From Escherichia coli (GTDB lineage: Bacteria > Pseudomonadota > Gammaproteobacteria > Enterobacterales > Enterobacteriaceae), in assembly GCF_051903065.1 (NCBI RefSeq), contig NZ_CP178439.1: 64,000 bases of DNA. One strand, given 5' to 3'. Below are positions 18,001 through 24,000 of the stretch, piece by piece. Position 1 is the stretch's first letter, and every line of letters begins with the position of its first letter. The position numbers were made by a program.

Positions 18001-21000
18001 AAGGCCAAAGACAAGTTCGCTGGCACCTGCTGTATCGGTCATAATTTCGGTTGGATTCAGCCCGGTCTCCTGTTCCAGAAGACCTTCCAGCACAAAGATA
18101 GAGTCCCTCAGCGTCCCCGGTATAACGATGCCATGAAAGCCGGAATACTGATCGGACACAAAGTTGTACCAGGTGATCCCTCTGTTATTACCAAAGTATT
18201 TGCGGTTCGGTCCGGCATTGATTGTTCTGACTGGCGTAACAAAGCGCATTCCATCTGCAGATGCCACTTCTCCTCCACCCCATATCTGTGCCAGTGGCAG
18301 CGTTGCCTGAAAATCAACCAGTCTGGCATTAGCGCTGGTGATAGTTTCAGCCCGCAGATAGTTCGCTTTTGTCCAGTTCAGCCGGTGTCGGGTCAGTGCA
18401 GGAACATTTGATCTGATCAGTGGTTCCAGACCGATATTGCAGGCTTCAGCCATCAGCACGGCGCTGATGCTGACGGGCAGATCATCAACTCTGGCACTGG
18501 CTTCACTAGCATGGAAAAACTCATCAGCAAATCCGGTATGGGCGTTAATTTCGAGCAGCAACTCCGTTAAATCCACCGGAGGGAGTAGATCACTGATCAT
18601 TTTGCTCAGTCGTTTCAGACTGTCCGGCTCATCAAGACTGGCGAGGGGAGAAATTGTCAACCGGGGCTTCGGGCCAGAAACATCGAGTTCGACAGCCTCA
18701 TTTTCGCAAAGACGTGCAGCAACCTGTCTGTAACGACTATCAAGCTGATGACCCAGAGATTTTATTGCTTCCTGCGGGTCTGTCGGGTGCCCCAAAGAAC
18801 GATAAACCTTAATCCGGTTTGCCTGCCAGTCAGCACCCTGTAGTAATCTTGCACGAGGATCTCCCCACCGGTTACTGCCGGTAACGTAGACATCCCTCCG
18901 CCTCAGACTATCCTGCAGTTTACTGAGAAAGCAGAGCGTGTATCCCCTGCGGGTGATATGTTTTTCCTTGTTAATCACCAGCCGTTTCCATGACCGACTG
19001 ATAATTTCCGTTGGTGCGTCGTCAAAAAACTGCCGCCGTGAGCTGAACTCCCGGCTGAGGTAGTCACAGGCATTCAGAGTGGTAACCCCGGCAGGTGCGG
19101 ATGAAAATTTAACGGTATTCAGCAGATGGGGCAGGAAACGACGAACGCGCCCGTACTGCTCCACCATTTCTTCATGAAAATTATCGTCTGAGGGCCGGGC
19201 AATTTCACGGACAAGCGTGATGATTTCAGCCAGCTTTTGCCTTGGGATGTAGCTGAACACCTCAGCACGAATCGATTCGTCCGGTGTTTCTTCTTTCAGC
19301 AGGTACGAACATGCGCTGGCGAGCGCCAATGCAGATTTATCCAGATCCTTCAGCGAGCGGAGCCGTTTTTTCTGCCCAATCTTTCTGGCGTCACGGATGA
19401 TAACGGCCAGCATGGCGTCCAGAACGTCCAATGCATCATCCAGCGCCAGCGTTTCCCATGCAAGGACAAAGGCAACCAGAACCGCCATCCTTTTCTGCGG
19501 TGACATCCTGGCAATATTGAACACCGAAGTCATACCAGCATAACGTGCGAGATTTTTCAGGCGCACAGCCGGGAGTGTACTCAGGTTTTCAGCATGCAGG
19601 CCAAAATCGTTCAGAGTTTTCCAGCGTTCAATTGCTTCATTAAACGCCGGACCACTGATGGTCACAGGGCCCTTTTTCAGTGATTCCAGTAAAGACAGGC
19701 GGCTGCAATCAGTTGGCCCCAGCAGCATCTCCAGCTGTGAACGCTGTTCGGCTGACGGTATCAGTGCCAGTTTGTTCCACAGGCGCAACGTCGCCTTTTC
19801 CCTTACCTCTGAAATCAACCGGGTCAGCGTAGTGGCTCCGGGGAGAATAATACGATGTTGCATAAGCCACCCTGTCGCCAGATCGAAAAGCAGGCCAGGA
19901 CGTTCGTTGCTTATCCAGCTCCGGGTATATAAAAGACGGGTAAGGCGAAATGTCCAGGGCCAGGCAAATTCACGATACTGATAGTGCTGACGTATCAGCG
20001 CTGCATGCTCACGGCGGGTATTTTCCCTCTGACCGTATTCTGCAAGAACGGTGATATCACGAATCCCGAGCTGTCTGGCGGTAAAATGCCGGACGCCGGA
20101 AGGAATATGACCTGGGACCTACGTGCGCCCGCACCGACACCCTCACACCTTCGAGCTACTGTTGCCATTAAGGGGTCGTTTCGTGGTGCTGAATTTTGAC
20201 GATCGGGGTACCGTCACCCATCGGGCGATATTGGGGGAAACCTGTACGGTGCTGGAGATGGCCGCAGGAACCTGGCATGCCGTGCTGTCGCTGGATACCG
20301 GTGGCATAATTTTTGAAGTAAAACACGGTGGCTATCAACCCGTGGCTGCCGATGACTATGCGCACTGGGCTCCAGCGGAAGGAGAACCAGGAACCACGGA
20401 GCTTATGGCCTGGTATGCGCAAGCGCAGGTGGGCGACAGCACTTTTGCCGTCTAAGGCGATAAACAAAAACGGAATGAGTTTCCCCATTCCGTTTCCGCT
20501 ATTACAAACCGTCGGTGACGATTTTAGCCGCCGACGCTAATACATCGCGACGGCTTTCTGCCTTAGGTTGAGGCTGGGTGAAGTAAGTGACCAGAATCAG
20601 CGGCGCACGATCTTTTGGCCAGATCACCGCGATATCGTTGGTGGTGCCATAGCCACCGCTGCCGGTTTTATCCCCCACAACCCAGGAAGCAGGCAGTCCA
20701 GCCTGAATGCTCGCTGCACCGGTGGTATTGCCTTTCATCCATGTCACCAGCTGCGCCCGTTGGCTGTCGCCCAATGCTTTACCCAGCGTCAGATTCCGCA
20801 GAGTTTGCGCCATTGCCCGAGGTGAAGTGGTATCACGCGGATCGCCCGGAATGGCGGTGTTTAACGTCGGCTCGGTACGGTCGAGACGGAACGTTTCGTC
20901 TCCCAGCTGTCGGGCGAACGCGGTGACGCTAGCCGGGCCGCCAACGTGAGCAATCAGCTTATTCATCGCCACGTTATCGCTGTACTGTAGCGCGGCCGCG

Positions 21001-24000
21001 CTAAGCTCAGCCAGTGACATCGTCCCATTGACGTGCTTTTCCGCAATCGGATTATAGTTAACAAGGTCAGATTTTTTGATCTCAACTCGCTGATTTAACA
21101 GATTCGGTTCGCTTTCACTTTTCTTCAGCACCGCGGCCACGGCCATCACTTTACTGGTGCTGCACATCGCAAAGCGCTCATCAGCACGATAAAGTATTTG
21201 CGAATTATCTGCTGTGTTAATCAATGCCACACCCAGTCTGCCTCCCGACTGCCGCTCTAATTCGGCAAGTTTTTGCTGTACGTCCGCCGTTTGCGCATAC
21301 AGCGGCACACTTCCTAACAACAGCGTGACGGTTGCCGTCGCCATCAGCGTGAACTGGCGCAGTGATTTTTTAACCATGGGATTCCTTATTCTGGAAGATA
21401 CGAAATAACAACAACATGAATAGTCCCTAAATTCCACGTGTGTTTTTTATTAGCTTCAAAAATCACTATTTCACGAAGAATTTAGACTGCTTCTCACACA
21501 TTGTAACATTATTTACAACCACCTTTCAATCATTTTTGATAAATCATTGATTTCATCTTTGCTGCAATGATACTTAATAAACTCTGCAAGTTATCCACAG
21601 AGCAACACTCAATTTTATTGATGATATTCTTATTATACCAGACATTTTTCATACACTCCCTTGTACGGATAGTTTTCCGACAACTTCATGATTACATATC
21701 TTGCGGTTTTGATTATTTTTGCTGCAAGAAATACATACTTCAAACGAAAGGTCTTTATTTGCTGTCTGTATTCTGAAGAGTCCAAGGAATCAAACTTGAA
21801 CAACAAAAATAGGTTATATGAAAGCATCATCATTTGAAACACGGCTTCATTCGCCCAAAATGACTTTAGCAAGAGATGACCCACCGCCATGTCGTATTTG
21901 GCTTCTTTGATATAGTTTTCAGCATTACCACGCTTTTCATAGTATATAACTACTTTTTCAGAAAGCAAGGTAGTATTTGTTACAAAGAAAAAGTAGTCGT
22001 ATTCGGAACCTTCTAAAAGTGATAATTGTGCTCTTTCTTTTTCTGGTTTCAGTACGCGAGATACGACAAATCTTCTGTCTTTTTCCCATTTAACTAATTT
22101 TGTATACAGTTCTGTAGTTTCTCTACCTTCTTCTCCTTTAACGAATACAATTGATGAATTCGTTGCTTGTGAGGTGAGTGTAGAATAACTTTTGGCTTTA
22201 ATTAAATATTTGCATCCAAGAGATTCTATCGTTTCGATAATTTTTTCATCAAAGTAGCCACTATCCATTCGAAATAAAATTTCTAAATCGTCTGATTTGA
22301 TGTTAGCAACAATTTCTTTTATCATTTCCGCAGCACCGTTTGCAGTGTAAGTATTGCCACTTCTTACAAATCCGGTAACATATGCTTTTAATTCGTCGCA
22401 AAATGCAAATTGGATATTGTAGCATCGGTTTCCCAGTTTCTTAGGATTATATCCTTTTGACGCACCTTCTTGATGACCTTCTACGTTAATTACACTACTA
22501 TCAATATCAATCGTAATGGATGTCAATTTACTTTTAGTGAGCAGTTTTTTAAAGACTTTAAAATTAATGTCTCTAAACATTTGGGTTGTCTTGAAGTTGA
22601 AGTTTCCTAGAAACCGTGACACTGTTTCAGGTTCTTTTACGGAAATATCAAACTCGTTGACGAGGGGATCATTTTGAAGTAGCTTTAGACGTTCTAACTT
22701 ATCAATGCCAATGAAGTGACCGCAGAGCATGGTCTTTATATGATTCATCTTGATTTTATTTGTTGAGTCATTATCAAATACGAGGTCATTTTCAATAAAA
22801 TCAAAAATCCCATTGCTTTTTGCATTCTCAAGGAGCAGAAAAAGACCTGCATTTGATGTTAGATTCTTAGCTTTGAAATCAATTTTATTAATCATAATTA
22901 GAACCCCTTTTTACTACTTTTCTTACTATTATTTTACCATATATCGAGTCATAAAAGCTGATAATTTAACATATTTTTGAGCACTTTTCTTTCACCCAAT
23001 GGGTGAAAGCTGAATTTCGAAGGAATGCATATTTATCAAGGCTTTGATTATGCTTTTTGAAGTACTGACGTAGAATCTAGGTATGATTCATATCGGTGAG
23101 GAAGGTGCCCAGAAAACGGACACATCCAATTTGCAGGGCAATGCCCAGACGGTTGTGATCACCTCTGCTTTTTCCGATAAATTCCTTGTCTGCTTCATCA
23201 AGGTGAAAATATCGTGCCAGCTGAAGCTCATCCGGTTCACCGGTGAATCTGCCATAGCTTTCAGTCTGCTCAGTGGTCAGAAAGTCAACGGGCATATCGG
23301 CCTCCCTGCCTGACGGGCATTTAGTAACATTTTTCCAACCGTACGAAATGTTATAAATTATCGGACATCGTAAAACTGTTACATTAATATGTCTATTAAA
23401 TCGTAAATTTGTAATAATAGACATGAGTTGTCCGATATTCGATTTAAGGTACATTTTTATGCGACTTTTTGGTTACGCTCGGGTCTCAACCAGTCAGCAG
23501 TCTCTTGATCTTCAGGTCAGAGCACTCAAAGACGCAGGTGTGAAAGCAAACCGTATATTTACCGATAAGGCATCCGGCAGTTCAACAGACCGGGAAGGGC
23601 TGGATTTGCTGAGGATGAAGGTGGAGGAAGGTGATGTCATTCTGGTTAAGAAGCTCGACCGTCTTGGCCGCGACACTGCCGATATGATCCAACTGATAAA
23701 GGAATTTGACGCTCAGGGCGTGGCAGTCCGGTTCATTGATGACGGGATCAGTACCGACGGTGATATGGGGCAAATGGTGGTCACCATCCTGTCGGCTGTG
23801 GCACAGGCTGAACGCCGGAGGATCCTAGAGCGCACGAATGAGGGCCGACAGGAAGCAAAGCTGAAAGGAATCAAATTTGGCCGCAGGCGTACCGTGGACA
23901 GGAACGTCGTGCTGACGCTTCATCAGAAGGGCACTGGTGCAACGGAAATTGCTCATCAGCTCAGTATTGCCCGCTCCACGGTTTATAAAATTCTTGAAGA

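Follow-up and report, generated by a model that had tools for sequence, protein, structure and literature searches.

A classical ISEcp1-blaCTX-M-55 unit in the Tn2 tnpA gene of an IncHI2-type plasmid

The Escherichia coli DNA analyzed here, 64,000 nucleotides of contig NZ_CP178439.1 (assembly GCF_051903065.1; hereafter the window), carries the resistance gene blaCTX-M-55 next to the insertion sequence ISEcp1, both of them lodged inside the transposase gene of a Tn2 transposon. In our reading, to which we give a probability of about 0.9, this is the classical 2971-bp unit composed of ISEcp1, blaCTX-M and a remnant of orf477, located at the canonical tnpA site of a Tn2 that bears blaTEM-1, on an IncHI2-type plasmid: the product of the same capture and the same insertion as the well-known CTX-M-15 unit, with an Ala77Val (A77V) substitution on top. 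The case rests on three sets of observations, namely the boundaries and contents of the unit, the identity of the allele, and a near-perfect match to the CTX-M-15 insertion of plasmid pC15-1a; the origin of Val77 is the part that must be weighed against alternatives.

The unit, its allele and its host transposon

A preliminary description, made from the same DNA, had placed the duplicated target TATGA on both sides of a 2971-bp unit that splits tnpA. Both copies are found by direct reading, and the interval between them (20111-23081) is exactly 2971 bp, with ISEcp1, the spacer and blaCTX-M on the minus strand. When the unit and one TATGA are removed in silico, the two parts of tnpA join into a single open reading frame of 1001 aa, with its ATG at 23295 and its stop at 17314; this restoration takes the boundaries beyond the chance match of a 5-mer (1 in 1024). 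The contents given in that description (ISEcp1, a 48-bp spacer, blaCTX-M and part of orf477) also proved correct. ISEcp1 is 1656 bp long and has imperfect terminal inverted repeats of ~14 bp: the left repeat (IRL), CCTAGATTCTACGT, and the right repeat (IRR; inward reading), CCTAAATTCCACGT, agree at 12 of 14 positions. Its transposase gene is intact, and the matching coding sequence in three annotated records (L002-L004) is WP_000608644.1. The spacer has the length and the sequence found in pC15-1a; 48 bp is the CTX-M-15 type (PMC6202452).

The far end of the unit lies within orf477, the 3′ part of which remains, convergent with blaCTX-M and separated from it by 46 bp. The remnant covers profile positions 47-132 of 132 in the NCBIfam model TIGR04366 (86.4 bits); the Prokaryotic Genome Annotation Pipeline labels it a partial WbuC gene in records L004 and L009, and the complete 477-bp gene is present in L005, a plasmid with a different CTX-M-55 unit. 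The surrogate right end (IRR-alt), CCTGGGACCTACGT, shares 10 of 14 positions with IRL, a level reached ~14 times per strand in the window, so the motif alone does not define the end of the unit. In L005, in which orf477 is full-length, those bases lie inside the gene, and the adjoining flank departs from that of the window exactly there. The far boundary is therefore set by the TATGA duplication and the comparison with L005, rather than by a motif that is not rare; what they delimit is a unit that takes in neighbouring DNA up to a surrogate right end and has a copy of the 5-bp target at each edge.

Which allele does the unit carry? The gene is identical at the DNA level to the CTX-M-55 coding sequences (WP_015387340.1) of L003 and L009, with 100% identity in AMRFinderPlus, and one base away from blaCTX-M-15 of pC15-1a (NC_005327; WP_000239590.1, 100%). 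That base turns Ala into Val at residue 80 of the precursor (Ambler 77); the GSGGYG motif places Gly at Ambler 240. Val in place of the CTX-M-15 Ala, together with D240G, is what the preliminary description had noticed, calling the enzyme CTX-M-55-like; alignment to the two reference alleles, one base from the former and none from the latter, leaves no further coding differences. CTX-M-55 is defined as CTX-M-15 plus A77V and is treated as a CTX-M-15 derivative (PMC10434037). With the match to WP_015387340.1, Ala77Val as the sole change from CTX-M-15 and Gly240 retained, the allele is, as judged by its sequence, exactly blaCTX-M-55 and not just similar to it. A passage of PMC10434037, citing He et al. 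2015, ranks CTX-M-55 above CTX-M-15 in ceftazidime hydrolysis.

The host transposon is bounded by perfect 38-bp inverted repeats (17281-17318 and 25169-25206) and contains tnpA, tnpR and blaTEM-1; subtracting 2976 bp (the 2971-bp unit and the 5-bp duplicated target) from 7926 bp leaves 4950 bp, the length of Tn2. That it is of the Tn2 type, and not Tn1 or Tn3, is probable from comparison with plasmid-borne copies: 99.93% identity with the element of pC15-1a (over 7342 bp) and resemblance to plasmids whose element PMC6202452 names Tn2. The severed 5′ part of tnpA carries a partial-DUF4158-protein label in related records. With tnpA split, this Tn2 would lack a full-length TnpA of its own and would need one supplied in trans.

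The context of the unit was compared with that in pC15-1a. Across 3000 bp spanning both junctions there are two differences, at 21139 and 22320; pC15-1a retains 7342 bp of Tn2 and unit, and over this length the count rises to five, made up of the A77V base and four silent positions (Table 1). In pPJ-T7-250kb, an IncHI2 relative of the window (NZ_OL598600; L003), the base at 21139 is the only difference from pC15-1a over the same 7342 bp. The junctions are identical to those of the pC15-1a type, and the suspicion of a CTX-M-55-like gene in a CTX-M-15-type context is thus borne out: spacer, surrogate end, TATGA and Tn2 arms are all those of the CTX-M-15 insertion. The same TATGA duplication in tnpA of a Tn3-like element has been described for pC15-1a, pEC_Bactec, pEC_B24 and pEC_L8 (PMC2887853); elsewhere it is given on the opposite strand as TCATA in Tn2 tnpA, which is called a hot spot (PMC6202452), and the 2971-bp module itself is on record (PMC7473005). 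The CTX-M-15 unit (pC15-1a, pEK499-type IncF plasmids, pESBL of O104:H4) shares length, spacer, surrogate end, TATGA, site and orientation with that of the window, which differs in having the A77V base, a private base at 22320 and an IncHI2-type region instead of an IncF or IncI1 one.

The silent differences have mixed distributions. The bases at 24165 and 24216 (Sutcliffe 175A/226C, at the 5′ end of blaTEM) are common to the window, to a Klebsiella pneumoniae IncF record (L007) in which the CTX-M-15 unit occupies the identical position and to an uninterrupted Tn2 (L008), whereas pC15-1a has 175G/226T. The window bases at 22320 and 23830 occur in none of the fetched records, and every fetched relative has G at 22320; on that ground, the reading of one match (H47) as a CTX-M-15 unit sharing the window base at 22320 was dropped. 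The silent differences cluster in the tnpR-blaTEM arm and may reflect exchange between Tn2 copies; a patch of Tn3 at 23830-24216 was considered, but two of the differences are shared with the Tn2-type records L007 and L008 and one is private.

The unit also has the sequence elements of the promoter expected of it. A scan of the ISEcp1 right end finds outward hexamers that match consensus at 10 of 12 positions, and 7 nt past the -10 box lies a G (21493) at -116, which equals the reported transcription start; experiments on an ISEcp1-blaCTX-M-55 unit had mapped these hexamers and this start (PMC4541600). By analogy, blaCTX-M-55 in the window would be expressed from this promoter.

Table 1. Features of Tn2 and the ISEcp1-blaCTX-M-55 unit, in window coordinates; differences are relative to pC15-1a.
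Feature	Position	Strand	Basis or detail
Tn2 with unit, 7926 bp	17281..25206	.	38-bp inverted repeats and profile searches
Tn2 tnpA, 3′ part, codons ~71-1001	17314..20110	-	NCBIfam Tn3-family transposase, 1013.9 bits
Left TATGA copy, Tn2 tnpA sequence	20106..20110	.	direct read
Surrogate right end (IRR-alt), within orf477	20111..20124	+	IRL match 10/14
orf477 remnant (WbuC-family cupin), 345/477 bp, N-terminal part gone	20111..20455	+	TIGR04366
blaCTX-M-55, 876 bp, 291 aa	20502..21377	-	NCBIfam blaCTX-M, 626.8 bits (cut-off 570)
CTX-M-15-distinguishing base, nt 239, codon 80 GCG->GTG, Ala77Val (Ambler)	21139	-	alignment
48-bp spacer, ISEcp1 IRR to blaCTX-M ATG	21378..21425	-	same sequence as pC15-1a
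ISEcp1, 1656 bp; IRR 21426-21439, IRL 23068-23081	21426..23081	-	inverted-repeat and sequence check
Outward promoter, ISEcp1 right end: TTGAAA, 18 nt, TACAAT, TG before -10	21500..21529	-	scan
ISEcp1 transposase gene, 420 aa, intact	21633..22895	-	NCBIfam NF033539, IS1380 family, 329.6 bits (cut-off 180)
Difference	22320		synonymous ATC->ATA, ISEcp1 tnpA
Right TATGA copy	23082..23086	.	direct read
Tn2 tnpA, 5′ part, first ~70 codons, severed by insertion	23087..23295	-	rejoining restores reading frame
tnpR	23459..24016	+	within Tn2
Difference	23830		synonymous, tnpR
Difference	24165		intergenic (blaTEM leader, Sutcliffe 175A)
blaTEM-1	24199..25059	+	TEM-family model, 668 bits
Difference	24216		synonymous, blaTEM (Sutcliffe 226C)

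The origin of Val77

How did a CTX-M-15-type unit come to encode CTX-M-55? The history would begin with ISEcp1, a member of the IS1380 family, inserting 48 bp upstream of a Kluyvera-derived gene of the blaCTX-M-3/15 type. “One-ended” transposition, pairing the ISEcp1 left end with the look-alike right end in orf477, would then have carried the gene into Tn2 tnpA, duplicating the target TATGA; finally, a C-to-T change at nt 239 (Ala77Val) would have turned the CTX-M-15 version into blaCTX-M-55. The formation steps are established ISEcp1 biology, which we infer for the copy in the window, and the A77V change most probably arose within the lineage of this unit.

The preliminary description had suggested a point mutation in situ rather than a separate capture, and the two halves of this suggestion fared differently. 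A separate capture, in which ISEcp1 would have picked up a gene like blaCTX-M-55 from the chromosome of Kluyvera, has a negligible probability: multiple mobilizations have been proposed for the CTX-M-1 group in general, with nothing specific to this case, while spacer length and sequence, surrogate right end, unit length and target duplication are all those of the CTX-M-15 unit. Because the unit boundaries, spacer, duplication and Tn2 arms match the CTX-M-15 insertion, so that every boundary is common to both, this origin is ruled out; an assembly artefact was likewise rejected, on the comparisons with pC15-1a and the other fetched records. Origin in situ is the most economical explanation, yet it is unproven.

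If the gene was captured once, was the unit also inserted into Tn2 once? An already mutated 2971-bp CTX-M-55 unit could have entered another Tn2 independently at the same “hot spot”, the term used for TCATA in tnpA (PMC6202452), and CTX-M-55 units do move: the 2971-bp unit is also present in yagA of the IncI1 plasmid pEC7-3 (L006), with a single difference, at 22320, which implies that the unit moved after gaining Val77. Published larger units that drag along a piece of Tn2 likewise point to movement (PMC9382594), and the unit in the window, with ISEcp1 intact and a sibling in yagA, appears able to move on. But an independent insertion would need the identical nucleotide position, orientation and duplication; the Tn2 arms of pPJ-T7-250kb are base-for-base those of pC15-1a over 7342 bp; single-nucleotide differences in the Tn2 arms that are common to CTX-M-15 and CTX-M-55 carriers were partly seen; and the spread of one ancestral Tn2 together with its unit accounts no less well for how often the site is found occupied. 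We consider a second insertion very improbable.

The structure itself is contradicted by none of the observations. Mutation of a unit already resident in Tn2 is the weak step of our preferred history, and several observations weigh against that history. First, CTX-M-55 is also found behind 45-bp and 127-bp spacers (PMC11895021, PMC6052338, PMC3046957). Second, L005, a 127-bp-spacer plasmid, departs from the window at a single base in 1316 bp (20110-21425), namely 21399, in the spacer 22 bp before the ATG: on the plus strand this base is G in L005 (its position 4290) and T in the 48-bp lineage. Third, there is no 5-bp direct repeat around Tn2, which has TTTTA on its left and TGTTA on its right. 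The same unequal flanks are present in pPJ-T7-250kb, whereas the IncI1 copy in L004 is flanked by GATAA at each end; from this it seems that the surroundings of Tn2 have recombined or lost adjacent DNA since its arrival, a matter of the route by which Tn2 came and not of its identity.

The spacer types make it possible that Val77 was imported, that is, that a Tn2-resident copy received it by gene conversion from another ISEcp1-blaCTX-M-55 unit, such as one of the 127-bp-spacer, blaCTX-M-3-derived lineage. Units of this type (F33:A-:B-/pHNMC02 type, including L005) encode the same protein, and their DNA is identical to that of the window from orf477 to the proximal 48 bp of the spacer, the one base excepted; they differ in having a 127-bp spacer, a full orf477, an IS26-truncated ISEcp1 and no junction with Tn2 tnpA, in a CTX-M-3-type context (PMC6052338). 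CTX-M-55 is reported behind spacers of 45, 48 and 127 bp (PMC11895021, PMC3046957), and just two bases set the 127-bp-spacer CTX-M-55 unit apart from one with CTX-M-3 (PMC6052338), for which exchange would be an easier explanation than two convergent mutations. A conversion tract would leave no trace if it ended between 21139 and 21399, a distance of 260 bp, and there are documented cases of recombination in Tn2 inside regions that carry CTX-M-15 (Partridge et al. 2011, as cited in PMC6202452). Set against this, there is no mosaic signal in the window, which has the 48-bp-lineage base at 21399 and otherwise follows pC15-1a through the gene and both flanks; the direction of conversion could equally have been from the window lineage to the others; and conversion costs more events than a single C-to-T transition. 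Import is unlikely, in our estimate, albeit worth keeping in view. A broader idea, that Val77 may pass among 48-, 127- and 45-bp-spacer units in short gene-conversion tracts, so that all would share one mutation through recombination, in place of repeated convergent change or inheritance within a single unit, and the window copy would be donor or recipient, is tentative and rather doubtful. The base at 21399 could, in its own right, be a lineage marker for exchange among CTX-M-1-group units.

Relatives and plasmid neighbourhood

The history favoured here, a CTX-M-15 unit mutated within its own lineage, concerns a very common arrangement. In PLSDB, a 3981-bp query spanning both junctions was matched at at least 80% coverage by 1057 of the best 5000 records. 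The best 30 records listed have 100.0% displayed identity and CTX-M-55 labels, and most of them are plasmids of IncHI2 size from Salmonella, E. coli and Enterobacter. Of these 30, 29 reach 7347 bits where a perfect match would give ~7353; the shortfall is equivalent to one mismatch, which was confirmed as 22320 in NZ_OL598600, and the exception (H1) owes its 7360 bits to three joined pieces, with ISKpn26 interrupting the match. A set of 5426 complete E. coli genomes gave 288 records with at least 80% coverage of the query and 109 with the whole 7926-bp element; the best 40 of these 109 comprise 8 with CTX-M-55 and 32 with CTX-M-15, including the O104:H4 outbreak plasmid, and a sample of the junction matches at at least 80% coverage gave 1 CTX-M-55 to 4 CTX-M-15. 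These ratios describe samples, the identity bands being too coarse for a total count of the two alleles at the Tn2 junction. In a survey of 2144 genomes, “ISEcp1-blaCTX-M-55-orf477-(Tn2)” was the commonest context of CTX-M-55 (1721/2947; PMC10434037).

The closest relatives are IncHI2/ST3 plasmids, which have been described with the same neighbouring genes (PMC9382594). pPJ-T7-250kb and NZ_CP074357 share unit, junctions and neighbourhood with the window, differing from it at four silent sites in 7926 bp (22320, 23830, 24165, 24216) and in how IS26 has arranged the outer resistance modules. Another plasmid, pC27A-CTX-M-55 (L001, CP044306.1), has the best coverage of the neighbourhood and was excluded from inferences about single-nucleotide differences owing to dozens of indels in ISEcp1 and blaTEM. 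In its region 20170-23736, ISEcp1 shows 38 mismatches together with 29 gaps, while the blaTEM and blaLAP calls are frameshifted; against otherwise identical DNA, these discrepancies are most likely uncorrected long-read errors.

The window as a whole is a multiresistance region, rich in IS26, from an IncHI2-type plasmid, and the genes around the unit run in the order ISKpn19, qnrS1, a truncated IS2-like element, Tn2 with the unit, a gene for a PBP3/FtsI-like protein, blaLAP-2, a second truncated IS2-like element, IS26 and aac(3)-IId; around Tn2, this order is the same in pPJ-T7-250kb and NZ_CP074357. The two IS2-like (IS3-family) fragments, of ~945 bp each (16330-17272 and 28306-29251), are inverted relative to each other, one mismatch apart, and bracket Tn2 with its unit, the PBP3-like gene and blaLAP-2; eight bases, GGATTTTA (17273-17280), lie between the first of them and the end of Tn2 and belong to neither. 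The PBP3-like gene (25450-27198, plus strand) lies between Tn2 and blaLAP-2 and encodes a 582-aa transpeptidase, WP_032623598.1, labelled “penicillin-binding transpeptidase domain-containing protein”; its NCBIfam FtsI score of 617 bits is below the cut-off of 737, so it is not the standard enterobacterial ftsI product.

There are at least nine copies or fragments of IS26 in the window (1048-1867, 5421-6202, 6575-7394, 11150-11969, 29249-30068, 32849-33668, 50780-51599, 57590-58409 and 61956-62775). Relative to pPJ-T7-250kb, a 5.4-kb module (6575-11969) that includes aac(3)-IId is inverted and relocated, which is typical IS26-mediated reshuffling, and the ends of the window are joined differently. 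The segment 49902-57751 lies outside both reference loci and contains aph(6)-I, tetR, tet(A), a gene for an EamA-type transporter and two fragments of Tn3-family transposase genes; it looks like a remnant region of the Tn1721/Tn5393 type.

A standard module in a mobile background

The structure is already known: it is a standard, abundantly documented resistance module, and the window yields no new biology from it; nor is the idea that CTX-M-55 derives from CTX-M-15 new (PMC10434037). What matters about it is clinical and epidemiological rather than conceptual. The cassette would confer resistance to third-generation cephalosporins, and it is co-located with further resistance genes, among them qnrS1, blaTEM-1, blaLAP-2, aac(3)-IId and tet(A), in a conjugative IncHI2-type background that is in circulation, in food animals and humans alike, among Enterobacterales including Salmonella and E. 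coli. What the window does provide is a clean textbook case, both of how ISEcp1 transposes one-ended and of how an allele evolves within a fixed mobile context.

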